Origin: Candidatus Omnitrophota bacterium
Lineage (GTDB): Bacteria > Omnitrophota > Gorgyraeia > Tantalellales > Tantalellaceae
DNA length: 64,000 nucleotides
NCBI GenBank assembly: GCA_043813915.1
Contig: JBDRKO010000012.1
Span: 37,457-101,456, forward strand
Direction of reading: 5' to 3'
The notes beneath the pieces were generated by a model. The model worked only from the letters and a program-made list of their open reading frames with translations, searched no databases and was not told the DNA's origin. A program made the translations under genes and the position numbers. Positions 24,160 to 52,395 of the stretch are shown in pieces. The stretch's first letter is position 1, and each line of letters begins with the position of its first letter.

Positions 24160-24246
24160 TTCGTAGAGGGTAGTTCATAGTTCGTAGTTAAAAGTAAAAC
24201 CAAGCTTTCCGCTATGAACTCCGAACTAAACCCGAAGGGTTTTACA

Positions 24247-26277
24247 ATGAAACTCAGTTATGAATGGGTCAAAGAATACGTTAAGACCTCGGTCAGTCCT
24301 GAAAAAATGGCGGAAGGGCTTACCATGTCCGGGTCCGAGGTCGGAGAGATGACGAAGGCAGGCAAAGACACCGTCATGGAGCTTGAGATCACTTCCAACA
24401 GGCCTGACTGTCTTAGCGTTATAGGTCTTGCCCGCGAAATTTCCGCGGTATTTGACGCTGATCTGACATTGCCTTCTTTCGGTCCCGTTCAGGAGAAAGG
24501 CGCCAAGAAAATAAAATGTGTAATACAGAACAAACAATTGTGCCCGCTATATACCGCTAGGGTCATAGAAAATATCACCGTCTCCGGAACGTGTAAGAAG
24601 ATAACAGACAGAATAACCGCGGTCGGCATGAGAGGGGTCAATAATATCGTCGATATAACCAATTACTGTCTTTTGGAGACGGGACAGCCCATGCATGCTT
24701 TTGATCTGGACAAGATAGAGGGCAGCGCGGTGTACATAAGGGAAGCCGCGGAAAACGAAAAAATAACCACAATAGACGGCATGGACAGGACGCTTAAAAA
24801 AGGGATGCTTGTTATAGCCGATGAAAAAGGACCGATAGCCGTAGCCGGGGTCATGGGCGGTAAACGGACCGAAGTCGGAGAACGGACCGTGAATATTCTT
24901 CTGGAAAGCGCTTATTTTGACCCGCTTTCCATAAGAAGGACCTCCCGGGAATTAGGCATTTCCACGGATTCCAGCTACCGCTTTGAGAGAGGAGTGGATA
25001 AAGGCATGGTCGAAAAGGCTTCCGCTCGCGCTTCCGCGCTTATTCTGAAAGAAACCGGCGGCACGGCTTCTCCCTTATCGGCCGAAGGAAGCGTTAAGTC
25101 AGAAATGACGATCATAAAATTCAGAGTGCCGGAAGCCGGCAGGATCCTGGGGATGACCCTGACAACCCGAGAAACCGGAAAGATCTTTCAAAGGCTCGGA
25201 ATGACTGTAAAAAAAGAGGAAAAGGATGTATTGTTCGTTGAGGCACCTACCTTTCGGGGGGATATCGCAAGAGAGGTCGACCTGATCGAGGAAGCCGCCA
25301 GGATATACGGTTATGAGAAGATCCCTTCGGAGATAAAAAAAATGATCCCTCAGGTAACGCGGAAACAGCGGGGGAGAGAGGTCCAGGAAAAGATAAAACA
25401 GATAATGACCCGGTCGGGCTTCAGCGAGATCATGACATACAGCCTCATCAGCGTCGCGGCCTCCGGAAGGTTCGCTATGATATCAGGGGACGAGGTCTCT
25501 CTTATTAATCCGCTGTCGGAAGAGCAGAAAGTGCTTACCCCGCAGCTGATCGATGGTATGATGAAGACCATTTCCTGGAATTTGAACAGAAATAGCAGGG
25601 ACCTCATACTTTTTGAGATAGGAAAGGTATATGCTCCCGGGAAAAACGGTTTTCTCGAAACAGCTGTCCTTTGCGCGTCTATGACCGGAAGCGCACGGAA
25701 CAATTGGGCTGAAGGGAACAGAAAAGCGGGATTGTATGATCTTAAGGGCGCCCTAGAGGCGCTTTTTGACGGGCTTTCCGTCCCGCCTGTTTTTAAAAAG
25801 ACCCGGATCGAAGGAATGGTCAATTGCGCGGATATACACATCGGAGAGTCTGACGAAAAAGAAGGCTTTATCGCGGAGATAGGATATGGGTTATCGGACG
25901 CGTACGGTATTTCTCAGAAAGTTTATGTCTGTCATGTCCGGCTGGATACTTTAACGGCTAAGGCTGTTCTGGACAGCAAATATGTACCGATAGCTAAATT
26001 CCCTTCTTCGGACCGGGATATATCCATACTGTGCGCGAGAGAGACCGCCGCGGAGGAGATAAAGAAGATCATATGCCGTGCCGGAGGACCGGCCGTTAAA
26101 GGGGTGGCATTCAAGGATATTTATGAAGGGGAGCAGGTCCCTGCCGGCAAGAAAAGCCTGACATACGGCATCAAATACGGCTCGGATGATAAGACCCTCA
26201 CCGACGCGGAAACAGAAAGCGTTCACGGCAAGATCAAAGAAGCTCTTATTAAGACCCTCGGAGTATCTTTCAGATAA
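24247..26277 (+). CDS. pheT: Phenylalanyl-tRNA synthetase beta subunit. It appears to lack the N-terminal tRNA-binding (Myf) domain.
   Basis: The start is MKLSYEWVKEYV. The B3/4 and B5 regions are present, and the FDX-ACB-like C-terminus reads KDIYEG. Confidence 0.85.
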   Translation: MKLSYEWVKEYVKTSVSPEKMAEGLTMSGSEVGEMTKAGKDTVMELEITSNRPDCLSVIGLAREISAVFDADLTLPSFGPVQEKGAKKIKCVIQNKQLCPLYTARVIENITVSGTCKKITDRITAVGMRGVNNIVDITNYCLLETGQPMHAFDLDKIEGSAVYIREAAENEKITTIDGMDRTLKKGMLVIADEKGPIAVAGVMGGKRTEVGERTVNILLESAYFDPLSIRRTSRELGISTDSSYRFERGVDKGMVEKASARASALILKETGGTASPLSAEGSVKSEMTIIKFRVPEAGRILGMTLTTRETGKIFQRLGMTVKKEEKDVLFVEAPTFRGDIAREVDLIEEAARIYGYEKIPSEIKKMIPQVTRKQRGREVQEKIKQIMTRSGFSEIMTYSLISVAASGRFAMISGDEVSLINPLSEEQKVLTPQLIDGMMKTISWNLNRNSRDLILFEIGKVYAPGKNGFLETAVLCASMTGSARNNWAEGNRKAGLYDLKGALEALFDGLSVPPVFKKTRIEGMVNCADIHIGESDEKEGFIAEIGYGLSDAYGISQKVYVCHVRLDTLTAKAVLDSKYVPIAKFPSSDRDISILCARETAAEEIKKIICRAGGPAVKGVAFKDIYEGEQVPAGKKSLTYGIKYGSDDKTLTDAETESVHGKIKEALIKTLGVSFR

Positions 26278-26334
26278 GCGCGGCCAAAAAAAATCTGTTA
26301 CAAAACATTTTCAAAGTGATATAATTAAGTTACT

Positions 26335-26510
26335 GCTAAGTGCGTGAAGCGGGAACGATGAATTGGACCAACACGATAAAATAGGGAATCTAACTTTGAC
26401 GTTTTCTTTATGGGAACGGCAAGAGGGTACCCACCTGGGAAACCAGGTCTCAATTCTCTTTCTGCGCACGGCTTGTCGGGGTAGGGCCGGAGAAGTCCGG
26501 CCCTATTTTT
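26335..26510 (+). ncRNA. Candidate roughly 175-nt structured small RNA or cis-regulatory leader, family unassigned. It runs from a promoter-like TTACAA-N17-TATAAT at about 26300-26326 to an intrinsic terminator.
   Basis: No coding ORF fits. It contains a GAAA-tetraloop hairpin CCTGG-GAAA-CCAGG. The terminator GGGCCGGA-gaag-TCCGGCCC plus T7 lies at 26475..26510. Confidence 0.3.
26475..26510 (+). terminator. Rho-independent terminator: an 8-bp GC stem, a 4-nt loop and T7.
   Basis: The sequence is gggccggagaagtccggccctattttttt. Confidence 0.7.
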
Positions 26511-26605
26511 TTAGGAACAGTTCAGCTTGCATAAGGAACGCAAAGAGCATAGGGCATGGCGCATAGAGTTAAGGACCGAGGGATCGAAGGGAATACGGAA
26601 TAAGC

Positions 26606-27007
26606 ATGAAAGAACAGGGAACGGTTATTACAAGAGACGCGGACACAGCTACGGTCCGAATAGAGAAAAGTGAAGCTTGTTCTAAATGCTGTTCCTGCGA
26701 GAACGCGCGGGCGAGGATCATAACGGTAACCGTGGATAAGGCCGCCGGTGTCAATGTCGGCGATATTGTGGAGATAGAGGTAAGCCCTTCGACGATGTTA
26801 AAGACATACTGCTTTATTTATCTTTTTCCGTTAATGCTGTTCGCGGCCGGTTCGCTGAGCGTATACGCGTTCCTGAAAGACCCTCTAAAAAGTTTTGCGG
26901 CAGGATGCGCGTGCGCTATGATATATTACGTTATAATCGGCAGATATATAAAAAAGAAAAAATGTTTTGACGGTAAAGTGAGCATCAATAAGGTTCCGGG
27001 GGAATAG
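26606..27007 (+). CDS. RseC/MucC-family (SoxR-reducing system) membrane protein.
   Basis: It has the Cys-rich N-terminus CSKCCSC followed by two hydrophobic helices, and the size (133 aa) fits. Confidence 0.55.
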   Translation: MKEQGTVITRDADTATVRIEKSEACSKCCSCENARARIITVTVDKAAGVNVGDIVEIEVSPSTMLKTYCFIYLFPLMLFAAGSLSVYAFLKDPLKSFAAGCACAMIYYVIIGRYIKKKKCFDGKVSINKVPGE

Positions 27008-27100
27008 AAGCGGGAAGTGAGACGATAGAGAACAGTTTAAAAAGTTAAAAGGTTAAAAGGTTTAATGTAGGGGCGGGGTTGCCCCGCCCTAATAATAAAG

Positions 27101-27135
27101 GGCGCGGAAACCGCGCCCGTACAGTTTTTATTTTT
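27101..27135 (+). terminator. Probable intrinsic terminator GGGCGCGG-AAAC-CGCGCCC plus a T-rich tail.
   Basis: It is a stem-loop followed by gtacagtttttattttt, downstream of the RseC-like gene. Confidence 0.5.
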
Positions 27136-27232
27136 AATTTCGCTATACGATATACGAATACAACGCTGTGCCCTATGCTCTGTGCGCTATGCGATACCCC
27201 GATATTCTATACTAAAACGACAGGAGGGAAAA

Positions 27233-27454
27233 ATGGAACAACGAGTGAAAGACGCGATAGAAAAGGTGAGGCCGCTTTTGCAGAGAGACGGCGGTGATGT
27301 TGAGTTCGCCGCGCTTGAAGGAAAAACGGTAAAAGTGCGTCTTAAAGGAGCATGCTGCGGATGTCCGATGAGCCAGATGACGATCAAGAGCGTAGTAGAA
27401 GAGACCATCAAGAGGGAAGTTCCGGAAATAGAAAAAGTTGAGAACGTCATGTGA
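27233..27454 (+). CDS. NifU-like Fe-S cluster assembly protein (Nfu/NifU C-terminal domain).
   Basis: It carries the motif GACCGCPMSQMTIK. The start is the ATG at 27233, after an AGGAGGG RBS. Confidence 0.75.
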   Translation: MEQRVKDAIEKVRPLLQRDGGDVEFAALEGKTVKVRLKGACCGCPMSQMTIKSVVEETIKREVPEIEKVENVM

Positions 27455-27456
27455 TC

Positions 27457-28605
27457 ATGAAAACCATATATCTTGATGCCAATGCCGCAACGCGGCTGGA
27501 CCCGGAAGTGCTCGCTGAGATGATGCCGTTCCTGGGCGGAACCTACGGAAACGCTTCGAGCGCGCATATCTTGGGAAGAGAAGCGAAAAAACATATCGAG
27601 CTGGCCAGAAGAAGAGTAGCGGCCTTGATAGGAGCGGATCTTCCCGAAGAGATAATGTTCACATCCGGCGGGACCGAAGCCGATAATGCCGCGATAATAA
27701 GCGTGGCGGAAGCGCTGCGTCTGAAGGGTAACCATATAATAACTTCTTCAGTCGAACATCCGGCCGTCCTGAATACCTGCAGATACCTGGAAAAGAAGGG
27801 GTATAGCGTTACATATCTAAAAGCGGACAAATACGGGATGATAGATCCCCTTGAGGTAAAGGACTCCTTAACGGATAGGACGATATTAATAACCGTTATG
27901 ACGGCCAATAATGAGACCGGGACGATCATGCCGATACGGGAGATAAAAGATATTGCCCGGGAAAGAGAGGTTCTTTTCCATACGGACGCCGTGCAGGCGG
28001 CAGGAAAGATAAAGATCAATGATCGCGGCCCGGCAGCGGATATGATCTCTTTGTCCGGGCACAAGATGAACGGACCCAAAGGTGTAGGGGCATTGTATGT
28101 CAAAAAAGGGATAACATTCACTCCTTTTATCCGCGGCGGACATCAGGAAAACGGGAAAAGGGCCGGGACGGAGAACACGGCGGGTATTGTAGGGATGGGG
28201 AAAGCCAGCGAGAACGCGCGGGAAAAAGGCGAGGAGAGGAAAGAAAAGGTCAAGAGAATGAGGGATCGGCTATACGGCGATATAAAGAAAAAAGTGGACG
28301 CGAAAATAGAGCTTAACGGACATCCTTCGGAAAGACTGCACAATACTTTGAACGTAAGTTTTGAAGGGGTCAATGGAGAGTCTTTGGTCCTTGCCATGGA
28401 CCTGGAAGGGGTGTGTATTTCAACCGGGTCGGCATGTACATCGGGCTCTCAGGAGTCATCGCATGTTCTTAAGGCTATGGGACTTGACGACGACAGGGTA
28501 AACGGCGCGGTAAGGTTCTCTTTGGATCATTTTAATACGGACAGTGAAATTGAAGAAGCTTCGGACCGGCTTAAGGAGAGAGTGGCCCGAATAAGAGATA
28601 TATAA
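27457..28605 (+). CDS. Cysteine desulfurase (class V aminotransferase, NifS/IscS).
   Basis: It has the PLP motif SLSGHKMNGPKG and the active-site loop SSGSACTS. It overlaps the nifU-like gene's stop codon. Confidence 0.85.
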   Translation: MKTIYLDANAATRLDPEVLAEMMPFLGGTYGNASSAHILGREAKKHIELARRRVAALIGADLPEEIMFTSGGTEADNAAIISVAEALRLKGNHIITSSVEHPAVLNTCRYLEKKGYSVTYLKADKYGMIDPLEVKDSLTDRTILITVMTANNETGTIMPIREIKDIAREREVLFHTDAVQAAGKIKINDRGPAADMISLSGHKMNGPKGVGALYVKKGITFTPFIRGGHQENGKRAGTENTAGIVGMGKASENAREKGEERKEKVKRMRDRLYGDIKKKVDAKIELNGHPSERLHNTLNVSFEGVNGESLVLAMDLEGVCISTGSACTSGSQESSHVLKAMGLDDDRVNGAVRFSLDHFNTDSEIEEASDRLKERVARIRDI

Positions 28606-28685
28606 GCTTTTAAAACACTAACAAATAAAAAAGTGGGAATATTTTTAATATTCATGTATAATACTACGGGATAAAAGTGACAAAC

Positions 28686-29243
28686 ATGGAAAGTAAAGAG
28701 GAACTACGAAAGGAGATAATAAGGCGTCTGAAGGACCAAGATCCAGCGTTGCGGGACAAAAGAAGCCGGAAAATACAGGAGAGATTTCTTGCAAGCGAAG
28801 AATTCAAAGCCTGTAGAACTGTTATGACTTACGTTTCTTTGACAACCGAGGTAGATACGAGCATGATCAACGAAGAAGCATTGAGATCGGGAAAGAGGGT
28901 CGCGGTTCCGTATCTGGGACCGGGAGAAGAGAGAATAATAGCTTCTAAGCTTACGGCTATAAAAGACTTGGAAAAAGGGCCTTTCGGCATATGTCAGCCG
29001 AAAAAAAGCCGCGTTGAAGAGGTGCCGCCGGAAGAAATAGACCTGGTAGTGGTTCCGGCGATAGCATATGACACCGATAATATGCGGCTAGGGAGAGGAA
29101 AAGGTTTTTATGATAGATTTCTCGCGGAAAAACACCTTTCCCGTATCCCGACAGTCGGCCTAGCCTTCGGTTTCCAAGTAGTAGAACATCTCCCCTCAGA
29201 CCCACATGACAGACCGGTTTTTCGGGTAATAACCGATATGTGA
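28686..29243 (+). CDS. 5-formyltetrahydrofolate cyclo-ligase.
   Basis: It has the motif GRGKGFYDRFL and an ATP-binding N-terminus. The start may instead be the GTG at 28677. Confidence 0.75.
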   Translation: MESKEELRKEIIRRLKDQDPALRDKRSRKIQERFLASEEFKACRTVMTYVSLTTEVDTSMINEEALRSGKRVAVPYLGPGEERIIASKLTAIKDLEKGPFGICQPKKSRVEEVPPEEIDLVVVPAIAYDTDNMRLGRGKGFYDRFLAEKHLSRIPTVGLAFGFQVVEHLPSDPHDRPVFRVITDM

Positions 29244-29299
29244 ACTCAACCAAGTGTATTTGGTGCCAAGACGTCCTTCTTATTAAAAGGGAGGAACAT

Positions 29300-30871
29300 A
29301 TGACAGGAAACAACATGTGGCACGATTTCGGATTTGCCTTCTTAGGCGGGATATTTTTCTTCATATTGGGATATATTTTGCGCAAATACACCGCCAAGAT
29401 GAAGATCAAACGCGCCGAAGACAAAGCCAAGACCATAATCAACGAATCAAAACTGGACGCTGAAAAAAGAAAAAGGGAATCCATCCTTGAAGCTAAGGAC
29501 CTTTCCCTGAAGATGAGGGCGGAATTCGAAGAAGAAGCAAAAGAGCGGCGTAAAGAACTTCTCGTTACGGAGAAAAGACTGATCCAGAAAGAAGAGAATA
29601 TCGACAAAAAAGCGTCGTTAATGGATCAGAAGGAGAAAGACCTGAAGCAGGTCGAAGAAGCCGCCACCTTAAAACACGAAGAAGCGGCTCGGAAAAAGGA
29701 CGAAATGGAGCGGCTTATACAGGATGAAAAAGTAAAGCTGCAGGAAATATCCGGGATGAGCAAAGAGCAGGCCAAGAGCATGCTGATAGAAAAAATGACG
29801 GCGGAAGCCAGGCAGGATGCCGCTCTTGAAGTAAAAAGGATACAGGAAGAGACTAAAGAGAAAGCGGATAGAGAAGCCCGCAAGATAGTCGGCCTGGCTA
29901 TACAGAAATGCGCGGTCGATCATACCGTCGAGACCACGGTAAGTGTTGTGCATTTGCCGTCCGAAGAGATGAAAGGCCGTATAATCGGCAGAGAAGGAAG
30001 AAATATCCGCGCATTAGAGATGGCCACGGGAGTGGATATCATCATAGATGATACGCCGGAGGCCGTTATCATATCAGGGTTCGATAAATTCCGCAGAGAA
30101 ATAGCCAGAATATCCCTTGAACGTCTTCTTGAGGACGGAAGGATACATCCCGGCCGGATAGAGGAAGTTGTAGGAAAGGTCAAGAAGGAGATGGAAGCCG
30201 CGATCAAGGTGGAAGGGGATAACACTCTCCTGGACCTCGGGATACACGGCGTGCATACCGAGCTGGTAAAACTTCTGGGAAGACTGAAATTCCGCACAAG
30301 TTACGGACAGAACGTTCTTCAGCATTCAAAGGAGACGGCATATCTCATGGCTACCATGGCCGGGGAACTTAGGCTGGATATCGCGTTAGCTAAAAGGATA
30401 GGGATACTGCACGATATAGGCAAGGCCGTATCGCACGAAATGGAGGGGACGCACGCGTCTTTAGGAGCGGATCTTGCCAAAAAGTACGGGGAACACGATA
30501 TCGTGGTGCATGCCATCGCCGCGCATCATGGGGACGTCGAGCCTAAGACACTTCTGGCCGTATTGGTGCAGGCGGCCGACGCGGTAAGCGCAAGCCGTCC
30601 CGGAGCGCGCAGGGAGAGCCTGGAACATTATATAAAACGTCTCGAGAATCTTGAGGCCATAGCCAATGAGTTCGAAGGAGTGGAAAAGACATTCGCCATA
30701 CAGGCCGGACGGGAGATCAGGGTAATAGTCAAACCCGAAAAGGTCGATGATGTCGCGACCGCTGTTCTGGCGCAGGAGATGAAAAAGAAAATAGAAGAAA
30801 GGCTGCAGTATCCGGGACAGATAAAAATAGTGGTTATCCGGGAGACTAGGTCGATAGAATACGCGAAATAG
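29300..30871 (+). CDS. rny: Ribonuclease Y.
   Basis: It has an N-terminal TM helix, a KH domain (GRIIGREGRNIRALE) and an HD domain (HSKETAYL...HDIGK). A strong AAGGGAGG RBS precedes the ATG at 29300. Confidence 0.85.
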   Translation: MTGNNMWHDFGFAFLGGIFFFILGYILRKYTAKMKIKRAEDKAKTIINESKLDAEKRKRESILEAKDLSLKMRAEFEEEAKERRKELLVTEKRLIQKEENIDKKASLMDQKEKDLKQVEEAATLKHEEAARKKDEMERLIQDEKVKLQEISGMSKEQAKSMLIEKMTAEARQDAALEVKRIQEETKEKADREARKIVGLAIQKCAVDHTVETTVSVVHLPSEEMKGRIIGREGRNIRALEMATGVDIIIDDTPEAVIISGFDKFRREIARISLERLLEDGRIHPGRIEEVVGKVKKEMEAAIKVEGDNTLLDLGIHGVHTELVKLLGRLKFRTSYGQNVLQHSKETAYLMATMAGELRLDIALAKRIGILHDIGKAVSHEMEGTHASLGADLAKKYGEHDIVVHAIAAHHGDVEPKTLLAVLVQAADAVSASRPGARRESLEHYIKRLENLEAIANEFEGVEKTFAIQAGREIRVIVKPEKVDDVATAVLAQEMKKKIEERLQYPGQIKIVVIRETRSIEYAK

Positions 30872-30900
30872 AGAATTAAAGGTCACCAGTTACCAGGTTA

Positions 30901-30944
30901 CCCCTGCCTGCCGGTTTACCTGCCGTAGGCATGGCAGGCAGGAA
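30901..30944. repeat. Composite palindrome cccCTGCCTGCCGGtttaCCTGCCgtaggcatGGCAGGCAGGaag.
   Basis: It is related to the CCTGCCTGCCGGCAGGCAGG palindromes at 32015 and 63759. Confidence 0.7.
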
Positions 30945-31003
30945 GTCACCGGTGACTAGGAAACTGGATACTGGTGATCACTTACAGGAAAGCTAGGGTT
31001 ATT

Positions 31004-31780
31004 ATGAGAATATTGTTCCTGGGAGACATAGTGGGGAGTCCCGGACGCGGGATAATCAAGAACCGTATTGCCGATCTTAAGAAAACGAAGAAGATCGACT
31101 GCGTTATCGCCAACGGGGAGAACGCGGCCGGCGGCAGCGGACTTACTCCTAAGATCGCCGAAGAACTGTTCGCCAGCGGGATAGATGTGCTGACGTCCGG
31201 TGACCATATATGGAAGAAAAAAGAGATATTTGACGTCCTCAGGACGACGAGCCGGCTTCTCCGTCCGGCGAACTATCCCGAAGGATCGCCCGGGTCCGGT
31301 TCCACGGTGATCGAAACGCCGAGCTCCGGAAAGGTGGGTGTGATAAACCTTATAGGACGCGTTTTTATGGAAGCGGTGGAATGTCCTTTTCGCACGGCCG
31401 AAAAAGAGATCGCTAAAATAAAGGACAAGACATCCGTCATTATCGTTGATATGCACGCGGAAGCGACAAGCGAAAAAGTCGCTCTGGGGTGGTATCTTGA
31501 CGGAAAGGTAAGCGCTGTTCTCGGAACGCATACGCATATACAAACGGCGGACGAAAAGATCCTTGATAACGGGACAGCGTATATTACGGATTGCGGGATG
31601 ACCGGTCCGTATGATTCCGTTATCGGAAGAAAAAAAGAGAATGTCATAGAAAGATTTATCACTCAGATGCCGGCCAGGTTCGAGGTAGCCGAGGGAAAAG
31701 TCGAAATGCACGGGGTTCTCTTGGACGTAGACGAAAAGACAGGCAAGGCGCGGAGTGTAGAGAGAGTGCAGGAGAGGTAA
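31004..31780 (+). CDS. YmdB-like metallophosphoesterase.
   Basis: The N-terminus MRILFLGDIVGSPGR matches. The rny-ymdB adjacency is as in Bacillus. Confidence 0.8.
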   Translation: MRILFLGDIVGSPGRGIIKNRIADLKKTKKIDCVIANGENAAGGSGLTPKIAEELFASGIDVLTSGDHIWKKKEIFDVLRTTSRLLRPANYPEGSPGSGSTVIETPSSGKVGVINLIGRVFMEAVECPFRTAEKEIAKIKDKTSVIIVDMHAEATSEKVALGWYLDGKVSAVLGTHTHIQTADEKILDNGTAYITDCGMTGPYDSVIGRKKENVIERFITQMPARFEVAEGKVEMHGVLLDVDEKTGKARSVERVQER

Positions 31781-31928
31781 GTGTTAAGATGTAAGTATTA
31801 AGTAATAAGTGTTGTTGGCGGGATGACGTGTAATGTTTTATGTGTAATGTGTGATGGGAAAGAGAAAAGAAGTCAGAGGACAGACGTCAGAAATCAGAGT
31901 GACGAGGGAAGAAGGACGAAGCCCAATA

Positions 31929-32054
31929 TTGTCATCCCGACCGAACGGAGGGAGTGGAGGGATCTGGATAAATGGACATCGGAATCGGGAGATCCCGATG
32001 CACCTCGAGCATTGCCTGCCTGCCGGCAGGCAGGCGGCTCACTCGGGATGACAA
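31929..32054. mobile_element. MITE-like 126-bp element with 12-bp perfect terminal inverted repeats TTGTCATCCCGA / TCGGGATGACAA.
   Basis: It shares the TIRs and internal segments (ggaatcgggagatcccgat; the palindrome CCTGCCTGCCGGCAGGCAGG) with the element at 63666..63821. Confidence 0.5.
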
Positions 32055-32105
32055 CGGAAGTATCGTTCACGAATTACAAATTACGAATTACGAATCACGA
32101 AAAAC

Positions 32106-33359
32106 ATGAAAGACGCAATGATCTATACTGTTACCCAGCTTACGCGGGACCTGAGGGACCTTTTGGAAGAAGCGTTCGCCAAGATCTGGGTGGAAGGGGA
32201 GATCTCGAATTACACGGTCTCATCGGCGGGGCACGCGTATTTCAGTTTAAAAGATAAAGAAAGCCTGCTTAATTGTGTTCTTTTCAAGGGGAGCGGGTCG
32301 AAAATAAAATTTACCGTCAAAGACGGAATGCAAGTCGTATGCGCCGGACGTATAAGCGTGTACGATAAAAGAGGACAATACCAGCTGTATGCGTCGGAAA
32401 TAGAACCTAAGGGGAAGGGAGCTCTTCAGCTGGCTTTCGAACAGTTAAAGGACAAACTTTCCAAAGAAGGTATTTTTGACGAAAAACATAAAAAGGCGAT
32501 ACCGCGCGTTCCCCTGCATGTAGGTATAGTTACATCGCCCACCGGAGCCGCCATAAAAGATATATTAAAGGTCGCGAAAAGACGGTTCGAGAATGTCGAT
32601 ATATCCATACGGCCGGTCAGGGTGCAGGGAGAAGGATCCGCCTCGGAAATAGCGGAAGCGATAAAAGAGCTTAACGATTATAATGGGTATATAGAAAGGA
32701 CCTCGTCCGGCGAGCATCCGATCGATGTCATAATAGTAGGACGCGGAGGAGGAAGCCTGGAAGACCTATGGTCCTTCAACGAGGAAGAAGTAGCCAGGGC
32801 AATTTACAATTCGAATATTCCTGTCGTAAGCGCCGTAGGGCATGAAATAGATTACACAATATCGGATTTTACCGCGGATATGCGCGCACCCACCCCATCG
32901 GCAGCGGCGGAGCTGATCCTGCCTAGGAAAGAGGATCTTATAGCCAGGATCACCCAATCTAGGAGAGGCTTGTATTCCGCGATGAAGGCAACCGTCGAGA
33001 ACCTAAGGACAACGGTAGAAGGGTTAGGAGAAAGTTATGTCCTGAGAAATCCCGTTAATGTGCTTCTTAGGATGAAACAGGAGATAGATGAAAAAGTCAG
33101 AGGGATCAATACTTTCATCTCGCATTTTCTGGATATCAAGCGCAAAGACTTGAACGGTTTGGCCGGCAAACTGCATATGTTAAGTCCGCTTGCCGTGCTT
33201 GAAAGAGGATACAGCATCACTTTGTCGGGCGGCAGCGCCATAAAAGACATAAGATCGGTAAGAAAGGGAGATAGTATAGAGACCCGCATGCACGGCGGAT
33301 ATATATCCAGCACGGTTATCGGGGTCAGTACCCCCGGGCGGGGCAAGGAGGAGGCATGA
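32106..33359 (+). CDS. xseA: Exodeoxyribonuclease VII large subunit.
   Basis: It has an OB-fold N-terminus and catalytic-domain motifs. It overlaps xseB. Confidence 0.85.
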   Translation: MKDAMIYTVTQLTRDLRDLLEEAFAKIWVEGEISNYTVSSAGHAYFSLKDKESLLNCVLFKGSGSKIKFTVKDGMQVVCAGRISVYDKRGQYQLYASEIEPKGKGALQLAFEQLKDKLSKEGIFDEKHKKAIPRVPLHVGIVTSPTGAAIKDILKVAKRRFENVDISIRPVRVQGEGSASEIAEAIKELNDYNGYIERTSSGEHPIDVIIVGRGGGSLEDLWSFNEEEVARAIYNSNIPVVSAVGHEIDYTISDFTADMRAPTPSAAAELILPRKEDLIARITQSRRGLYSAMKATVENLRTTVEGLGESYVLRNPVNVLLRMKQEIDEKVRGINTFISHFLDIKRKDLNGLAGKLHMLSPLAVLERGYSITLSGGSAIKDIRSVRKGDSIETRMHGGYISSTVIGVSTPGRGKEEA

Positions 33360-33580
33360 AAGATACAAATTTCGAAAAAGACCTTCAAAAACTCGAGAAG
33401 ATAGTAGCGGAACTTGAAGATGGGGAATTTTCGCTGGATTCGTCAATGAAAAAATATGAAGAAGGGATAAAACTTGCCCGCGCATGCCGGGAACAGCTGG
33501 AAAAAGCCCAGAAAAAAATAGAGATACTTATAAAAAAAGACGAAAACCTTTTTGAAAAACGGCCGTTTGAGGAAACTTGA
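33356..33580 (+). CDS. xseB: Exodeoxyribonuclease VII small subunit.
   Basis: It is 74 aa with a coiled-coil motif LEKIVAELEDGE.SLD. It overlaps xseA by ATGA. Confidence 0.8.
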   Translation: MKDTNFEKDLQKLEKIVAELEDGEFSLDSSMKKYEEGIKLARACREQLEKAQKKIEILIKKDENLFEKRPFEET

Positions 33581-33601
33581 AAGAGTGCAAAGAAGGAATA
33601 A

Positions 33602-35479
33602 ATGGGAACATTGCTTGATAAGATATCCTCTCCGGAGGACTTGAAAGAGCTCAGCATGGAGCAGTTGAAAGCCCTTGCCGGCGAGATAAGGGAAACGATA
33701 ATCAATGTTACATCCGAGAAAGGCGGGCATGTAGCCGCAAGTCTAGGAGCGGTGGAACTGGCCATAGCGCTCCACTATTGTCTGGACAGCCCAAAAGACA
33801 AGATCATATGGGACGTGGGGCATCAGAGCTATGCCCATAAACTGCTTACGGGCAGAAGAGAGAGATTCGGTACCTTAAGGGAAATGGGAGGGCTCAGTGG
33901 ATTTCCTCTCGCCGAAGAAAGCGAGCATGACCCGTTCACCTGCGGACATAGTTCTACTTCTATTTCAGCGGCTCTGGGAATGGCGTCCGCGAGGGACATA
34001 TCCGGGCAGGATAACAAAGTGGTCGCCGTGATCGGGGACGCGGCCTTGTCCACCGGCTTGGCATTCGAGGGGATGAATAATGCCGGCAACAAGCAGACCA
34101 ACCTGGTGGTGATATTGAACGATAATGAACATTCGATATCCAAGCCTGTAGGAGCGATGAGCAGATATCTTAATACCGTTATCACTAACCCGCTGTATAA
34201 CAAGGTGAGGCAGGAAGCCGAAAAGATCGTTAAGGGAATACCTAAACTGGGCCCGGCCGCGTATAATACGGTAAAAAAATTCCAAGAAGGCCTGAAAAAC
34301 CTTCTGGTCCCGGGTATAATTTTTGAAGAACTGGGGTTTCGGTATTTCGGGCCCATAGACGGGCACGATCTTAAGCAACTTATATCTACATTGCAGAAGA
34401 TATTACCTTTTAAAGAACCTGTTTTTATCCACGCAATGACCAAAAAAGGAAAAGGATACAAGTTCGCGGAAGAAGATCCCACCAGATTCCACGGGGTGAA
34501 CTTTTTTAATATCGCGACAGGCAGAACGGAAGCAGCGGACCCGAAAGGTAAGACATTCACGGAATATTTTTCCGATAAGATGGTAGAACTGGGGGAAAGG
34601 GATAAAAGAGTTGTCGCTATAACAGCGGCGATGCCTGACGGCACGGGACTCTCGGCATTCGCCAAAAAGTTCCCGAAACGGTTCTTTGATGTCGGGATAA
34701 CCGAACCGCATGCGGTAACTTTTTCCGCGGGGCTCGCGAAAGGCGGACTTAGACCCGTAGTAGCGGTTTATTCCACTTTTCTTCAGAGGGCGTATGATCA
34801 GCTTATACACGATGTTGCTCTGCAGAAACTCCCGGTGATCTTTTGTCTGGACAGGGCCGGGCTTGTCGGTAAGGACGGGCCTACGCATCACGGCGTTTTT
34901 GATATCCCCTACACGAGGAGTTTGCCGAATTTCACTGTCATGGCGCCTAAAGACGGAGAAGAGATGAAGCGCATGATGGACCTGTGTTTGGAATTGGAAG
35001 GACCTTCGGTCCTCAGATACCCCAGGGATACAGCCGGCCAGCTTGTAGGCATATCTTCCTGCGAGCCGCTAAAAAAAGGAAAAAGCGAAGTTTTGAGAGA
35101 AGGTAAGGACCTGACTATTTTAGCTATAGGAAGCATGGTGAATACCGCGCTTTCGGCCGCGAACATATTGTCAAAAAAAGGTATAGAGGCAACGGTAATT
35201 AACGCGCGTTTTATAAAACCTTTGGATGCGGAAATGCTGGAAGAACTGCCCCGCAATAAACGCAGAATATTCACTCTTGAAGAAGGGGTCGTTTCCGGAG
35301 GGTTCGGGAGCGGCGTGCTGGAATTCTTCGAGAGAGAGAATATAGCGAATATAAAGATAAGATGTTTGGGCCTGCCGGACGAGTTCATAGAGCATGGCGG
35401 CAGAGAAGAGCTTTTGAGAAAATATCACTTATCGGCTCCTGAAATAGCGGAAACGATACAGTCGGAACTAGGAAGATGA
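33602..35479 (+). CDS. dxs: 1-deoxy-D-xylulose-5-phosphate synthase.
   Basis: It has the TPP-binding motif GDGA.STG and transketolase-like domains. Confidence 0.9.
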   Translation: MGTLLDKISSPEDLKELSMEQLKALAGEIRETIINVTSEKGGHVAASLGAVELAIALHYCLDSPKDKIIWDVGHQSYAHKLLTGRRERFGTLREMGGLSGFPLAEESEHDPFTCGHSSTSISAALGMASARDISGQDNKVVAVIGDAALSTGLAFEGMNNAGNKQTNLVVILNDNEHSISKPVGAMSRYLNTVITNPLYNKVRQEAEKIVKGIPKLGPAAYNTVKKFQEGLKNLLVPGIIFEELGFRYFGPIDGHDLKQLISTLQKILPFKEPVFIHAMTKKGKGYKFAEEDPTRFHGVNFFNIATGRTEAADPKGKTFTEYFSDKMVELGERDKRVVAITAAMPDGTGLSAFAKKFPKRFFDVGITEPHAVTFSAGLAKGGLRPVVAVYSTFLQRAYDQLIHDVALQKLPVIFCLDRAGLVGKDGPTHHGVFDIPYTRSLPNFTVMAPKDGEEMKRMMDLCLELEGPSVLRYPRDTAGQLVGISSCEPLKKGKSEVLREGKDLTILAIGSMVNTALSAANILSKKGIEATVINARFIKPLDAEMLEELPRNKRRIFTLEEGVVSGGFGSGVLEFFERENIANIKIRCLGLPDEFIEHGGREELLRKYHLSAPEIAETIQSELGR

Positions 35480-35480
35480 T

Positions 35481-35702
35481 ATGGAAGAAAAAAAGAAATT
35501 GCGGATAAGAACGGAAAGATGCAAGGGATGCGGGCTCTGCATTAACGTATGCCCTTCCGGACATCTGAGCATGTCCGATGGAGTGAATAAACGAGGATCT
35601 AAATATGTTACGCTCAAAGAAGGCGGGAAGTGCACTTTATGCGGGATGTGCGCGGTAATCTGTCCTGATTGCGCTATAGAGATCAGAGAAGATGAAGGAT
35701 AG
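35481..35702 (+). CDS. 4Fe-4S ferredoxin, the probable delta subunit of the 2-oxoacid:ferredoxin oxidoreductase.
   Basis: It has two CxxCxxCxxxCP clusters. Confidence 0.7.
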   Translation: MEEKKKLRIRTERCKGCGLCINVCPSGHLSMSDGVNKRGSKYVTLKEGGKCTLCGMCAVICPDCAIEIREDEG

Positions 35703-35862
35703 ACGGTCCGAAGGAAGAGAGACGAAGGACGAAAGACGTGTTATGCGAGAAGTAGAAGTAGAAATGCTAACCTGGTTAGAAGATGCCAGGTTAGTATAAA
35801 ACCAGATCATTTACTTGGCAGCGTTAACCAGGTTAGATCGTACTTAACCTTATATTCAGGAC

Positions 35863-35970
35863 ATGAAACAGAAATATTTATGTACAGGAAATGAAGCTTG
35901 CGCGGAAGGCGCCGAGAACGTAATGTTCGAGGTGCGTCGAAACGCCCCTGTTTCGACGTTCCGATAAAAA
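35863..35970 (+). pseudogene. Diverged duplicate of the first 17 codons of the downstream oxidoreductase alpha gene (MKQKYLCTGNEACAEGA), fused to repeat copy B. It forms a 35-codon ORF.
   Basis: Nt 35863..35913 align to 35998..36048 with about 8 substitutions, mostly synonymous. The repeat element starts at 35908. Confidence 0.5.
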
Positions 35971-35997
35971 AATGAATGCTGAACGGTAAACTTGATC

Positions 35998-37056
35998 ATG
36001 AAGCAAAAATATCTATTTACAGGTAATGAAGCGTGCGCTGAAGGAGCGCTCCGCGCGGGATGCCGTTTTTACGCGGGGTATCCTATAACCCCGCAGAACG
36101 AGCTCATTGCCTACATGGCGCTTCATATGGAAGAACGCGGCGGCGTGTTCATACAGTCCGAAAGCGAACTTGCGGCGGTCAATATGGTGTTAGGAGCTTC
36201 TGCCGCGGGAGCGCGGGCTATGACAAGTTCGTCCTCACCGGGGATAAGCCTGAAACAGGAGGGTATATCGTATATGGCGGGGTGTGAACTGCCGGCCGTT
36301 ATAGTGAACGTAATGAGAGGGGGTCCCGGCCTTGGTAACATTTCCGCTTCACAATCAGATTATTTTCAGGCGACGAAAGGCGGAGGCCACGGAGATTACA
36401 GGATCATAGTTCTTGCTCCGTCAAGCGTGCAGGAGATGTTCGATCTTACCTTCAACGCGTTCACGCTAGCGGATAGATATAACACTCCCGTAATGGTGCT
36501 TTCGGACGGGCTTTTAGGACAGATGATGGAACCTCTCGAATATGACGAGGAGAGAGCTCCTGCCGGTATTGTGGATAAACCGTGGGCGATGAAAGGCTCG
36601 AAAGGGAACGCCGCCAAAAGCGTAAAAAGTCTGTATCTCGGGGACGGAGTGCTGGAAGCGCTCAATACAAAACTTCAAAAAAAATACGGAGAAATAAAGA
36701 GTAAAGAACCCATAGCCGAACTCTACAAATGCGATGACGCGGAAATAGTGCTTGTTGGGTACGGGTCCGTAGGACGTATACTGATGTCATGCGTGGATAT
36801 TCTAAGAAAAGAAGGCATTAAAGCCGGAGCGGTCAGACCGATAACTTTGTGGCCGTTCCCATGCGAGGCGATAAAGAAGCTCGCGGAAAAGATAAAGAGG
36901 TTCTTTGTGGTCGAAATGAGCGCGGGTCAGATGGTGGAAGATGTGATGCTCGCCGCTGAAGGAAGAACAAAAGTGGATTTTTATGGACGGACAGGCGGAG
37001 GTATCCCGCAGGAAGAGGATATAATAAAAGAAATAAAGAAAGTTCGTAGTAGGTAG
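35998..37056 (+). CDS. 2-oxoacid:ferredoxin oxidoreductase alpha subunit.
   Basis: The N-terminus LFTGNEACAEGALRAGCRFYAGYPITP matches KorA/OorA. Confidence 0.8.
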   Translation: MKQKYLFTGNEACAEGALRAGCRFYAGYPITPQNELIAYMALHMEERGGVFIQSESELAAVNMVLGASAAGARAMTSSSSPGISLKQEGISYMAGCELPAVIVNVMRGGPGLGNISASQSDYFQATKGGGHGDYRIIVLAPSSVQEMFDLTFNAFTLADRYNTPVMVLSDGLLGQMMEPLEYDEERAPAGIVDKPWAMKGSKGNAAKSVKSLYLGDGVLEALNTKLQKKYGEIKSKEPIAELYKCDDAEIVLVGYGSVGRILMSCVDILRKEGIKAGAVRPITLWPFPCEAIKKLAEKIKRFFVVEMSAGQMVEDVMLAAEGRTKVDFYGRTGGGIPQEEDIIKEIKKVRSR

Positions 37057-37218
37057 TTCATAGTTCGTAGTAGTTCGTGAACCGCCCGAAAAAAGAGGTC
37101 AGAGAGACGAAGGAAGAGAGACGATAGAGGGTCACCGGAGGGTAGAGGCGAGAAGATATAAGGTCACCTGGAGTAGGGGCGGGGTTGCCCCGCCCGAGGC
37201 GGGAAGTGAGAAGGAAGA

Positions 37219-37315
37219 GGCGCCGAGCACGAAATGTGCGAGGTGGGCAAAACGTCCCCGTTTTGATAGCCGAGCACGAAATGTGCGAGGTAGATCGAAA
37301 CCTCCGTGTTTCGAC
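37219..37315 (+). repeat. Two tandem copies, C1 and C2, of the roughly 50-nt GGCGCCGAG element. The hairpins are GCAAAACG-tcccc-CGTTTTG and GATCGAAAC-ctccgt-GTTTCGAC.
   Basis: They align directly with copies A, B and D. Confidence 0.8.
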
Positions 37316-37393
37316 AATCTAGTTCTAGATCTCTCGACCCGCTTTGCTCGCTCGAGATGACAATATAACCGCCGCTAAACAAAAAGAACAAAC

Positions 37394-38125
37394 ATGGCAA
37401 AGACATTTAAAAGACCTGATTCGATGAAAGATGTGCCGATGCATTATTGCGCCGGATGCGGACACGGGTTGATACACAGACTGATATGCGAAGTTATAGA
37501 TGACCTTGGCATAAAAGGAAATACGGTAGCGGTGGCACCCGTAGGATGCGCCGTGCTCGCCTATGATTACTGGGATTTTGATACTATGGAAGCGCCGCAT
37601 GGACGGACACCGGCCGTAGCGACGGGACTTAAACGCGTTCTGCCGGATAGTCTGGTATTTACGTATCAGGGCGACGGCGATCTTGCCGCTATCGGGACGT
37701 CCGAGATCATACATGCCGCCAATCGAGGAGAAAATATTTCCGTTATATTTGTCAATAACGGTGTATACGGGATGACCGGAGGACAAATGGCTCCTACGAC
37801 TCTTAAAGGTCAGATAACCGCGACATCACCGCATAAGCGCAGAGTTGAAAAAGAAGGATATCCTTTAAAGATAACGGAAATGATGGCCCTTCTTGACGGA
37901 ACAGCTTATCTTGAAAGAACATCGGTAGATTCTTACGTGAATATCACTAAAACCAAAAAAGCTATAGAAAAATGTTTCAGGACCCAGCTCGACAAAAAAG
38001 GGTTTTCCATGGTAGAGATAATTTCGCCATGCCCCACTTATTGGGGAATGTCACCGGAGAGATCCATGGAAAGGATACGCAGCGAAGTTGTTAAGGAGTA
38101 TCCGTTGGGAGTTATTAAAGGGTAG
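37394..38125 (+). CDS. 2-oxoacid:ferredoxin oxidoreductase beta subunit (TPP-binding).
   Basis: It has the motifs HYCAGCGHG and GDG. Confidence 0.85.
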   Translation: MAKTFKRPDSMKDVPMHYCAGCGHGLIHRLICEVIDDLGIKGNTVAVAPVGCAVLAYDYWDFDTMEAPHGRTPAVATGLKRVLPDSLVFTYQGDGDLAAIGTSEIIHAANRGENISVIFVNNGVYGMTGGQMAPTTLKGQITATSPHKRRVEKEGYPLKITEMMALLDGTAYLERTSVDSYVNITKTKKAIEKCFRTQLDKKGFSMVEIISPCPTYWGMSPERSMERIRSEVVKEYPLGVIKG

Positions 38126-38357
38126 TTAAAGAGAGGTCAGAAGACAGAAGTCAGAGGGCAGAAAGACGAAGGACGATAGAAGAAGTGTCAGAGTGTCAAA
38201 GTGTCCGGGTGTCAAAAAGTTGTGGCGAATGATGTTCTCTCTTCCGTCATTGCGGGGACTTCTGCGAAGCTCTACCAGGGGCCCATATTATATTAGAGCG
38301 TAGCAGAGGATGAAGCAATCTCAAGAGAGTCTGTAATTTAATATTTGGATCTTATTT

Positions 38358-38903
38358 ATGAAGAATACCATTCACCACACTATTATTTGCGCCGGGTTCG
38401 GCGGGCAGGGCATAATGGTGCTCGGCAAAGTAATTGCCGAAGCCGGAATGCTAGCCGGGATGAACGTGACATGGCTTCCTTCCTACGGCGCCGAGGTCCG
38501 CGGAGGAACGGCACATTCGGCCATAAGAATAAGTTCCGGCAAGATCGCGAGCCCTATCGTCTCCGGAACGGATACGGCCATTATAATGAACGGACCTTCT
38601 CTGGATAAATTCGAAAAAAGAATAGTTCCGGGAGGGCTTCTTGTGCTCAATACCTCCATGGCCGAGAGGACCTCCGATAGAAAGGATATTGAGATAGCGA
38701 ATGCACCCTTGACGGAGGAAGCTATAAAATTAGGTAACATAAGGGTCGCTAATATCATAGCGGTCGGGATATATCTGTCAAAAAGGAATATTTTGACCAA
38801 AGACGCGGCCGTTGAGGCCATAAAAAAAATGGGTTCAGGGAAAAAAGAACTGGTAGAGATAAATATTAAAGCGTTAGAATTGGGGATGGAGATAGGGAAG
38901 TAA
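38358..38903 (+). CDS. 2-oxoacid:ferredoxin oxidoreductase gamma subunit.
   Basis: It has the motif ICAGFGGQGIMVLGKVIAEAGM. Confidence 0.8.
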   Translation: MKNTIHHTIICAGFGGQGIMVLGKVIAEAGMLAGMNVTWLPSYGAEVRGGTAHSAIRISSGKIASPIVSGTDTAIIMNGPSLDKFEKRIVPGGLLVLNTSMAERTSDRKDIEIANAPLTEEAIKLGNIRVANIIAVGIYLSKRNILTKDAAVEAIKKMGSGKKELVEINIKALELGMEIGK

Positions 38904-39048
38904 GGGGTAGATGTCAGAAGCCAGAAGTCAGAGGTCAGAGACACGAAGGAAGAAGGACGAGGGACGAGAGAATAGTTTGAAAAGTTAAAACGTTTTAAAA
39001 GTTAAAAAGTACAAAGGGTAGGAAGAGGGAGGAAGTAGCTACTCCCTA

Positions 39049-39128
39049 TTGTCATCCCGAGTGAGCCGAAGGCGAATCGAGGCGCCGAGGACGAAGTGTC
39101 CGAGGTGGGCAAAACGTCCCCGTTTTGA
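39049..39128 (+). repeat. Left-TIR-like segment TTGTCATCCCGAGTGAGC followed by copy D of the GGCGCCGAG element, with hairpin GCAAAACG-tcccc-CGTTTTG.
   Basis: It links the MITE-like family and the 50-nt element family into one mosaic. Confidence 0.7.
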
Positions 39129-39401
39129 CGATTGTGGGAGAGTATAGTGTCAAAGTGTTAGAGAAAGAACTGACTCTGTGAATCTAATGAGCGGAGATAA
39201 GGGGTCTTCTTTGTAGCTAAGCGAATGATGACTCTATGACTCTAATAAAGGACAATAGTCAATCGTCAATAGTCAATGGTCTGTTAAGACGGTTCACAAA
39301 TCACGACTCACGAATTACGAATTACGATTAAGCATCAATCAATACAACGCTGTGACCTATGCGATCAAAAGGTCTATTGTCTATAAATTAAGGATATTAT
39401 C

Positions 39402-40679: not shown

Positions 40680-40896
40680 ATTTGTTCCTACGGGGACGTC
40701 CGATCTCCTCCGGCGGGAAATCGGACTCGGTAATTTTCGAACAATTTTTCATCCTTCCGGGATGAAAAAACCAAGCTTGTTCGAAAATTAACGCCCCGCA
40801 CGAAACAAATTGACCCGTCAACTATTCTCTTTCGGCGTGGAGGGGGCGAACGGCCTGCGGCCGTTCGGGAAAAGCGGAAGTGGCTGGGACAAAAAG

Positions 40897-40952
40897 GTTG
40901 GGAGAGAGAAAGTTATAGAGAGGATGTTGAAGACAGCCGGATAAATTTGTTC
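40897..40952 (+). repeat. Direct duplication, 56 nt at about 90% identity, of the last roughly 15 codons plus the stop and 3' flank of gltX (40632..40688).
   Basis: gttgggagagagaaagttatagagaggatgttgaagacagccggataaatttgttcc aligns with cttgggaaagagaaagttatagagaggatgttgaagacggccggataaatttgttcc. Confidence 0.85.
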
Positions 40953-52388: not shown

Positions 52389-52395
52389 GCGTGAT

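Follow-up and report, generated by a model that had tools for sequence, protein, structure and literature searches.

What are the two short non-coding sequences at positions 31929-32054 (copy 1) and 63666-63821 (copy 2) of a 64-kb stretch of a Candidatus Omnitrophota genome, hereafter the window? A sequence-only reading had taken them for members of a non-autonomous, modular family with terminal inverted repeats (TIRs), akin to miniature inverted-repeat transposable elements (MITEs). They are indeed small, repeated, bounded by inverted repeats and built from modules, but they are not classical MITEs with TIRs and target-site duplications (TSDs). Each is probably a heads-out inverted pair of a directional DNA hairpin that is related to the sites of Ssn nucleases, a variant of the Neisseria NTS/dRS3 'Ssn-related motif' (SRM), which belongs to the CGTC/TGTC-tagged repetitive extragenic palindromes (REPs). 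As judged from sequence comparison, the "TIR" is the 5' head of this hairpin and not a transposase end, because the stem covaries within each arm even where the two arms of an element differ.

The two copies align end to end, in agreement with the earlier description, at 78% mean column identity and with two indels (8 and 23 nt). A 56-nt core common to both is 91% identical and holds the internal hairpin, ggaatcgggagat(c/t)ccgat, together with a perfect 20-nt palindrome, both as described in the sequence-only reading. Perfect TIRs of 12-13 bp had been claimed for both copies; the match is perfect over 12 bp in copy 1, but only 11 of 12 positions agree in copy 2. The right TIR (CTCGGGATGACAA) is perfect in both. 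The left ends, TTGTCATCCCGAC in copy 1 (31929-31941) and CTGTCATTCCGAG in copy 2 (63666-63678), differ from the 13-mer first given for them at one and two positions, respectively.

The intergenic hairpin "words" of the window are an A-word, which starts with the proposed TIR, a B-word, a C hairpin and GTAG-headed REPs. Both elements have the layout of a complete A-word on the plus strand, a 14-15-nt spacer, and a C-B-A-head unit on the minus strand. Read on the minus strand, the right part consists of an A-head, a B-word with the 20-nt palindrome in its loop and a C hairpin. The window elements are thus a complete hairpin on the left and, on the right, a head fused to lineage-specific B (with palindrome) and C hairpins. 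Compared with shuffled sequences, the whole elements fold strongly as RNA (z -5.1 and -4.7 for the two copies), and copy 1 also does so as DNA (z -4.2 and -5.2 on its two strands).

All module copies in the window are intergenic. A search for the head allowing up to two mismatches gave seven matches against 1.5 expected, a number reached in 2 of 100 shuffles, and three of the heads are identical 13-mers. Recurrence of the head at 12223, 39049 and 63666, joined to different internal modules at different places, was borne out, and one match had been overlooked (37351-37363, minus strand). Variants headed by CGTCAT occur at 43128 and 38245. The tags of the window arms are TTGTCAT, CTGTCAT and CGTCAT, and the C that follows the stem is present in GGGATC, GGAATC and GAGATC.

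The A-word hairpin across phyla

Is this arrangement peculiar to the window? One genome per species was scanned with the pattern TGTCATYCCGAS-N(100-130)-STCGGRATGACA, which returned at least 119 TIR-bounded stretches in at least 10 phyla. Hosts among the matches listed include Acidobacteriota, Verrucomicrobiota, Gemmatimonadota, Chloroflexota, Bacteroidota (including Flavobacterium isolates), Bacillota, Oscillospiraceae/Ruminococcus, Omnitrophota, Patescibacteria, Gammaproteobacteria, Coriobacteriales and Abditibacterium. All follow one plan, TGTCATYCCGAG-[variable]-CGAGGRATC-[arm]-[variable centre]-[arm']-GATYCCTCG-[variable']-CTCGGRATGACA. An Omnitrophota metagenome-assembled genome (L040) carries a clean dimer with about 27 bits per arm, and near-identical copies occupy unrelated sites of a single Chthoniobacter genome. 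The recurrence of the same architecture in so many stretches excludes chance for the window elements.

The A-word follows the consensus (Y)TGTC-ATNNN-GA-S-[CGNAG mini-hairpin or variable insert]-S'-GA-N'N'N'AT-C. Its short form, TGTC-ATNNN-GA-G-CGNAG-C-GA-N'N'N'AT-C-T, consists of a variable stem of 5 bp, then a CGAG/CGAG step, then a GCGNAGC unit in which all four bases occur at N. Tandem sheared G.A pairs have their classic context in such a CGAG/CGAG step, and GCGNAGC is a GNA-triloop DNA mini-hairpin.

The stem is supported by covariation. The Y of ATYCC and the R of GGRAT in the same arm pair as C-G in 120 cases and T-A in 100, against five T.G and two C.A. Six head/tail triplet states lie on the diagonal, and other head triplets (CCT, TTC, CTC, TCT, GCT and ACT) also face complementary tails. 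A second covarying pair is G-C in 202 arms and C-G in 42, with A-T at that position visible in the arm list. When the tail of each arm was anchored without regard to pairing, 404 unique arms yielded 1178 Watson-Crick pairs (97%), 16 T.G and 18 C.A; the lack of a wobble excess fits a constraint at the DNA level and not at the RNA level. In 110 short-form arms the named structure is 93.8% paired, as compared with 84.3 +/- 0.5% in shuffles, and holds 96 double-change cells where shuffles hold 25. Neither value was reached in any of 500 shuffles, and slid controls were 10-56% paired. Where the two arms of an element are unlike (30 elements), pairing within the arm is kept in 49 of 53 cases, while pairing from arm to arm would mismatch. 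By this comparative measure, the A-word hairpin is under selection for pairing within the arm.

Outside the stem, position -1 is T in 93% of 553 arms, and position -2 is C (39%) or T (36%); the invariance of GTCAT itself follows from the arm search, which admitted no other sequence there. The C right after the stem, imposed by no search pattern, is present in 96% of arms. A covariance model (R1) was built from the 110 arms, with the window arms left out, as their inserts are longer.

Paired modules surround variable spacers in many phyla without a TSD. The TSD check suggested by the sequence-only reading found none at either window copy, and none of at least 3 nt in 130 TIR-bounded elements of other genomes, where two-nucleotide border matches numbered 14 against about eight expected. 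Conservation ends at (Y)TGTCAT, and in some genomes the palindrome or the similarity between copies runs further out. That reading had held that absence of both TSDs and additional copies would make the TIR similarity coincidental. TSDs are indeed lacking, but further copies are very many, which means that the TIR similarity is no coincidence.

Tandem arrays of bare heads (TGTCATYCYGAGC plus about 10 nt, three to four copies) were also seen at the outer edge of dimers and Ssn genes (L018, L117, L031, L047, L127 and L159/L164), as if heads had been added stepwise.

The linked GIY-YIG gene and the explanations weighed

Which gene, if any, goes with the hairpin? The sequence-only reading had suggested a search for a cognate transposase, and none was found in the window or recurrently near the at least 119 loci. 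An all-against-all BLAST of open reading frames (ORFs) of at least 100 aa, a cut-off above the Ssn genes of about 95 aa, returned as recurrent neighbours only large generic families (ATP-binding cassette transporters, aminotransferases, short-chain dehydrogenases/reductases and sigma factors). The associated gene elsewhere codes for a GIY-YIG single-stranded DNA (ssDNA) nuclease. At one of the loci, in Abditibacterium (L025), a GIY-YIG gene lies 47 nt from the dimer; its homologues comprise 1029 proteins of about 95-120 aa, and several of the homologous ORFs extend into the repeat, ending ...ARNDR or ...AQDDT.

Eighty metagenomic loci were then picked by protein similarity and patterns alone, with the presence of modules not used. 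A-words are present in 72 of them and lie within 300 nt of the gene in 70 (upstream in 63, downstream in 48, on both sides in 45). Most A-words found (191 of 229) overlap the gene or lie at most 250 nt away, a density of about 4.8 per kb near the gene against 0.13 per kb further out, or about 37-fold. Upstream A-words are mostly on the plus strand and downstream ones mostly on the minus strand, so that the heads point outward. Inverted repeats between the flanks occur in 32 of 61 loci with enough flank (median 40 nt, 91% identity); at the cleanest loci, such as L187 and L159, the arms and even the adjoining spacer form perfect inverted repeats around the gene. A module-linked protein searched against the N. 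gonorrhoeae chromosome is 52% identical to the ssnA product (E 3e-18), and the matching gonococcal gene has canonical NTS repeats on either side, with a heads-out NTS dimer among those upstream. The module-linked family is therefore the Ssn family. The module class is tightly linked to Ssn genes in other genomes, where the genes are bracketed heads outward, in the manner of an insertion sequence (IS) whose gene-less derivative is the "MITE". A protein-coding counterpart of the gene-less elements thus exists in other genomes.

How were such elements gained in the window? Three Omnitrophota relatives (L215, L216 and L217; XseA 61-64% identical) share with it the block rny-ymdB-xseA-xseB-dxs-fer4-porABG-gltX-glnS. 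In the relatives the ymdB-xseA gap is 1-5 nt and the por genes overlap, and no A- or B-words occur in 21 kb of each. At six of the same junctions the window has repeat-filled spacers of 325, 289, 337, 232, 498 and 617 nt. As the genes of the relatives are contiguous and free of repeats, the repeat-filled spacers are a lineage-specific gain. This operon-level synteny was used in place of an empty-site comparison: a search for orthologous empty sites in near-identical strains gave only identical copies (L001 and L002) or relatives at no more than 68% identity.

The biochemistry of SsnA offers a model of how the hairpin might act. SsnA is a 94-aa single-domain GIY-YIG nuclease whose site is the longer Neisseria repeat NTS, CGTCATTCCCGCGMAVGCGGGAATCYRG (Chenal 2025, PMC11893778). 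SsnA recognises the NTS hairpin solely in ssDNA and in just one of the two strands, and its cut falls a few nucleotides upstream. For cleavage, the three nucleotides 5' of the palindrome are important; for binding, no base counts for more than the C that follows it (PMC11893778). Homologues across phyla are flanked by related motifs, giving an IS-like NTS-ssnA-NTS layout (PMC11893778). By analogy, the head strand of the window elements would fold when single-stranded, during replication, transformation or repair, and an Ssn-type nuclease could bind the hairpin and its flanking C and cut a few nucleotides 5' of TGTCAT. In a heads-out dimer either strand would carry one such site, and the two sites would lie at the outer borders. 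Spread would presumably proceed through ssDNA cleavage followed by repair or recombination, leaving no TSD.

A bolder proposal can be advanced only tentatively, and we consider it rather doubtful. The bracketed Ssn genes and the gene-less dimers would be the autonomous and non-autonomous members of a new class of mobile element, based on GIY-YIG ssDNA cleavage with neither a covalent intermediate nor a TSD. Its GA-type clade, in at least 10 phyla and invisible to the SRM search, would in this Omnitrophota lineage have proliferated with other hairpin and heptamer modules and pried apart genes that overlap in relatives.

Several points weigh against the Ssn-related explanation of the window elements. 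The 64-kb window holds no module-flanked Ssn gene; its sole GIY-YIG gene, a member of another subfamily that is associated with tRNAs, has none of the A-words close by. In both copies the right arm is a tail-less head with a weak model score, and a full site is present on only one strand of each element. To our knowledge, GIY-YIG nucleases do not catalyse transposition. With standard DNA parameters single arms are thermodynamically unremarkable (z 0.69, -1.36, -1.71 and 0.81); as far as we know, standard nearest-neighbour folding gives no credit to sheared G.A pairs or to the GNA mini-hairpin, and the structure of the arm rests on covariation and not on predicted energy. The covariation states could in part derive from a few old, much-copied subfamilies and not from many independent compensations. 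The published SRM string, HGTCWYN(0-2)YYVSBRHN(0-5)WNVSBRGN(0-2)RNCYNB, misses the variant, with no match in the window (0.29 expected) and one in 344 kb of Ssn loci, because it accommodates neither the G.A step nor loops of greater length. Finally, the biochemistry concerns Neisseria and Wolbachia homologues on their own motifs, not the GA type (PMC11893778).

Could the elements instead be inert relics, left to decay and reshuffled as repeat-rich spacers recombine, on which no nuclease of this genome acts any longer? Truncated heads fused to other modules in the right arms, the divergence and indels between the copies, spacers that are mosaics of many repeat types, and the absence of a cognate gene from the window all fit such decay. 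Against this, the left arm of copy 1 and the A-word at 37327-37363 are intact and score like bona fide members, and identical heads persist. We hold this explanation to be unlikely; it concerns present activity and not identity, and is compatible with the Ssn-related hairpin.

Another reading would have REP doublets (REPINs) mobilised on ssDNA hairpins by a REP-associated tyrosine transposase (RAYT; HUH-Y1, TnpA_REP). REPINs and the window elements follow one logic, in that the hairpins carry a tag, the doublets are inverted, TSDs are absent and one gene is flanked by the repeats. HUH class 3 REPs likewise have tandem-GA internal loops, and at 27070, 37176, 22344 and 59100 the window has canonical GTAG REPs that match the type given for RAYT subclass 2.4 (supplement of PMC6006769), which suggests a RAYT gene elsewhere in the genome. 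However, the tag of the A-word is TGTC and not GTAG, and a study of CGTC/TGTC REPs found no transposase for them (Di Nocera et al. 2013, PMC3733652). The gene bracketed in 70 of the 80 loci is GIY-YIG and not Y1, and no Y1 gene (PF01797) was seen in the window. REPIN-type mobilisation is accordingly improbable.

A structured RNA, whether a cis-regulatory element, a processing or stability hairpin or a small RNA transcribed with the operon, has a similarly low probability. The genes on either side of the elements do share one direction and form operons in relatives, and the elements fold strongly as RNA when taken whole; REP-type hairpins are generally known to affect mRNA stability (PMC3733652). 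Yet no Rfam family matches them (the best E is 0.07, below the gathering score; the top sub-threshold hit within the element is dinG, 22.9 bits where the threshold is 46.9), and only tRNAs and 6S RNA attain the Rfam threshold in the window. The modules occur in both orientations relative to genes, G.U is not in excess over C.A as in typical RNA families, the element is wholly absent from the relatives examined, and the homologous Neisseria motif is bound as ssDNA, not RNA (PMC11893778). A side effect on mRNA once an element has inserted is possible.

Very improbable, lastly, is a classical MITE, an IS deletion derivative mobilised in trans through staggered cuts by a DDE transposase bound to the 12-13-bp TIRs: small size, lack of coding, copy number, inverted repeats ending TG...CA, near-identical Chthoniobacter copies at unrelated sites and lineage-specific spacer gain would suit it, but TSDs and a recurrent transposase are missing from the window and from the loci of other genomes alike, covariation runs within arms and not between TIRs, the palindrome or similarity extends past TGTCAT in some genomes, and such ends enclose a gene for a GIY-YIG nuclease.

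What would an Ssn-related identity mean? Ssn nucleases were described only in 2025 (PMC11893778). The pairing of repeat and nuclease extends to a structurally distinct motif, with tandem G.A and a GNA mini-hairpin, that is widespread in phyla of soil, gut and groundwater, including Omnitrophota and Patescibacteria. As the published string misses this motif, current censuses undercount the system. With IS-like (gene-carrying) and MITE-like (gene-less) forms side by side, the question "domesticated or still mobile?" becomes testable, and the GA-type motif adds enzyme/site pairs that are new candidates for ssDNA tools. It also accounts for spurious small ORFs in annotation and for breaks in metagenome assemblies, of which it is a very common source.

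Surroundings in the window

Nearly all genes of the window are on the plus strand and have housekeeping functions. Its XseA is identical to proteins in records derived from metagenome-assembled genomes, and the close homologues all bear the name Omnitrophota or Omnitrophica. The intergenic DNA is an unusual mosaic of heptanucleotide tandem repeats and short hairpin words (Table 1). The heptamer units include ACGAATT, AGAAGTC, GACGAAG, AAAAGTT, AGTGTCA, GTATTAA, TGACCAT and GGTAACC, among others; the tandem repeats run in both orientations and are reminiscent of cyanobacterial STRR repeats. The B-word, GGCGCCGAG-SAC-GNAAT-GTS-CGAGGTG, has five copies on the plus strand, shares a CCGAG...CGAGG core with the A-word and has a covarying inner stem. 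It is always followed by the C hairpin (TCGAAAC..GTTTCGA), whose loop holds a CCTCC-like sequence. In 1.3 Mb of loci from other organisms, where the A-word was found, no B or C modules and no 20-nt palindrome were seen. A hairpin between rny and ymdB has the same arms as the palindrome of both elements, with a longer loop.

Table 1. Positions of the elements, their modules and other features of the window.
Feature	Positions	Strand	Evidence or remark
Copy 1, left arm: complete A-word TTGTC-ATCCC-GA-C-[cgaacggagggagt]-G-GA-GGGAT-C-T	31929-31965	+	Model built from other genomes: 31926-31969, 30.5 bits, E 1.3e-6
Copy 1, internal hairpin ggaatcgggagatcccgat: C module read on minus strand	31981-31999	.	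Kin to TCGAAAC..GTTTCGA hairpins after B-words
Copy 1, B-type hairpin half (CACCTCG...), palindrome CCTGCCTGCCGGCAGGCAGG (32015-32034) in loop	32001-32041	-	Comparison with B-words 22237, 35906, 37217, 37264, 39079
Copy 1, right "TIR": head only, TTGTCATCCCGAG on minus strand, joined to B/C modules, without own tail	32042-32054	-	Weak model match 32032-32057 (-), E 0.081
Copy 2, left arm: complete A-word CTGTC-ATTCC-GA-G-[22-nt insert]-C-GA-GGAAT-C-T	63666-63710	+	Model 63669-63714, E 0.018
Copy 2, internal hairpin ggaatcgggagattccgat	63725-63743	.	91% identical to copy 1
Copy 2, complete B-word (GAGGCGCCGAGGACG[palindrome]TAATGTCCGAGGTG), palindrome 63759-63778	63745-63796	-	88% complementary to B-word 22244-22275
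Copy 2, right "TIR": head TTGTCATCCCGAG on minus strand	63809-63821	-	Model 63781-63824 (-), E 0.23
Solitary A-word, 33-nt insert, TCC head / GGG tail, one T.G pair	12223-12277	+	Model E 0.44
Complete A-word, CTC head / GAG tail, convergent with two B-C units (37217-37313)	37327-37363	-	Model 28.5 bits, E 5e-6 (37323-37366)
A-head, B-word and C hairpin standing alone, same unit as right part of copies 1 and 2	39049-39128	+	94%
Short-form A-word with CGTC tag, CGTCATTGCGAGCGTAGCGAAGCAATCC; TGC/GCA stem, GCGTAGC mini-hairpin, one bulged A	43128-43155	+	Model E 0.077
B-words	22237-22283, 35906-35955, 37217-37266, 37264-37313, 39079-39128	+	Always followed by a C hairpin
GTAG-headed canonical REPs (GTAGGGGCGGGGTTGCCCCGCCC; GTAGGGGCACGGCATGCCGTGCCCCTAC)	27068-27092, 37174-37198, 22344-22371, 59100-59127		
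Hairpin CCTGCCTGCC-[ggtttacctgccgtaggcat]-GGCAGGCAGG	30905-30950		Between rny and ymdB
Heptamer-filled spacers (examples)	31781-31928, 32066-32105, 38126-38200, 38904-39010, 39230-39340, 41160-41296, 63840-63900		
Operon block rny to glnS	24214-42970		
83-aa single-domain GIY-YIG gene, the only Ssn-like gene in the window	52396-52647	-	Pfam PF01541, 5.7e-17

The 83-aa GIY-YIG protein of the window aligns with the Ssn-family alignment A3 at an hhalign probability of 97%, and its best tblastn match is 40% identical over 65 aa (E 7e-11). As cognate nuclease of the window A-words this gene (52396-52647) was rejected, since its relatives sit at tRNA genes and not between A-words. It lies between a complete tRNA-Gln(CTG) gene (52314-52388, minus strand) and a partial duplicate of the 5' half of that gene (region 52250-52900). 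This duplicate breaks off within the anticodon loop, and next to it come two hairpins whose stem ends read ...GAACC-loop-GGTTC... The same layout is present in six of seven homologue contexts (tRNA-Asn, tRNA-Leu and tRNA-Gln; L205-L213), and the named homologues are mostly from Patescibacteria. In appearance the unit is a cassette of 350-450 bp with tRNA anticodon loops as its target; its half tRNA would serve to restore the gene, and it carries no integrase. A literature search found no description of a cassette in tRNA anticodon loops, and it may be more novel than the hairpin repeats.

A low-GC, minus-strand island at about 43200-53130 carries genes for a tyrosine integrase (48174-49256), for an excisionase-like HTH_17 protein (49253-49495) and for an AAA_14/DUF4143 protein (43513-44835), as well as two large ORFs that have no Pfam match (45217-47994 and 50559-52046). 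Inverted repeats of 30 nt (44876-44905 and 53101-53130, 97%) lie at its borders, and a 147-nt direct repeat lies inside (43202-43348 and 48147-48293). The island is probably an integrated element adjoining tRNA-Gln. Elsewhere, a 286-nt repeat (16703-16988, 17025-17310 and 17210-17495; up to 95% identical) has copies after each of two other tRNA genes (16593-16663 and 17045-17118). The window also contains a giant ORF (158-12145, 3995 aa) with internal repeats of about 150-170 nt (2001-2148/2883-3030 and 8983-9151/9835-10003), and a 6S RNA gene (26327-26486; Rfam, 49 bits).

Comparison with known systems

Literature searches by sequence strings returned only unrelated primers, and a search for GCGAAGC hairpins nothing relevant. 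With bacterial MITEs (for example Correia/NEMIS, Nezha and Chunjie) the window elements share a size of 125-155 bp, inverted ends, lack of coding, multiple copies and gain between genes. Unlike them, they have no TSD and no DDE parent element, and their ends are hairpin heads under structural selection within the arm.

REP/REPIN-RAYT systems and bacterial interspersed mosaic elements resemble the A-word system in several ways. The ssDNA hairpin bears a tag, the unit that replicates is an inverted doublet, TSDs are absent, the linked gene has its own repeats on either side, and there are mosaic arrays in which other motifs take part. The tag there is GTAG and the enzyme HUH-Y1, whereas the A-word has TGTC and a GIY-YIG partner; the GTAG REPs of the window are separate modules. 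HUH class 3 'CnGA' REPs were rejected as a match, their sequences (CCGAGCCGCGACCGTAAGGGAGCGGA) being a different repeat.

Di Nocera et al. (2013, PMC3733652) distinguished two REP superfamilies by their tags, GTAG and CGTC. In the CGTC group the tag is often TGTC, stems start with A-T and T-A, and no transposase is associated; its members, which include Neisseria dRS3, form inverted dimers with 20-100-bp spacers and often complementary ends (PMC3733652). The A-word agrees in tag, stem start, short 3' tail, intergenic location, lack of a transposase, and dimers whose 20-100-bp spacers often have complementary ends or stem-loops of their own. CGTC REPs as described have 8-9-bp stems, 4-5-nt loops and a CCA tail and come from five phyla (PMC3733652). 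In contrast, the A-word has five Watson-Crick pairs, tandem G.A and two more pairs, closed by a GNA triloop or a long insert, with a C-T-N tail and different host phyla.

NTS/SRM, finally, matches the A-word in its directional hairpin, the unpaired (C/T)GTC tag, the AT start of the stem and the C right after it. Both are multi-copy and intergenic, form heads-out dimers and bracket a single-domain GIY-YIG gene of about 95-120 aa. The A-word differs in its tandem G.A (CGAG/CGAG) and in its GCGNAGC mini-hairpin or 10-60-nt insert, where NTS/SRM has a perfect 8-bp stem and a 3-5-nt loop. The mosaic spacers of the window, in turn, resemble the NIME arrays of Neisseria.

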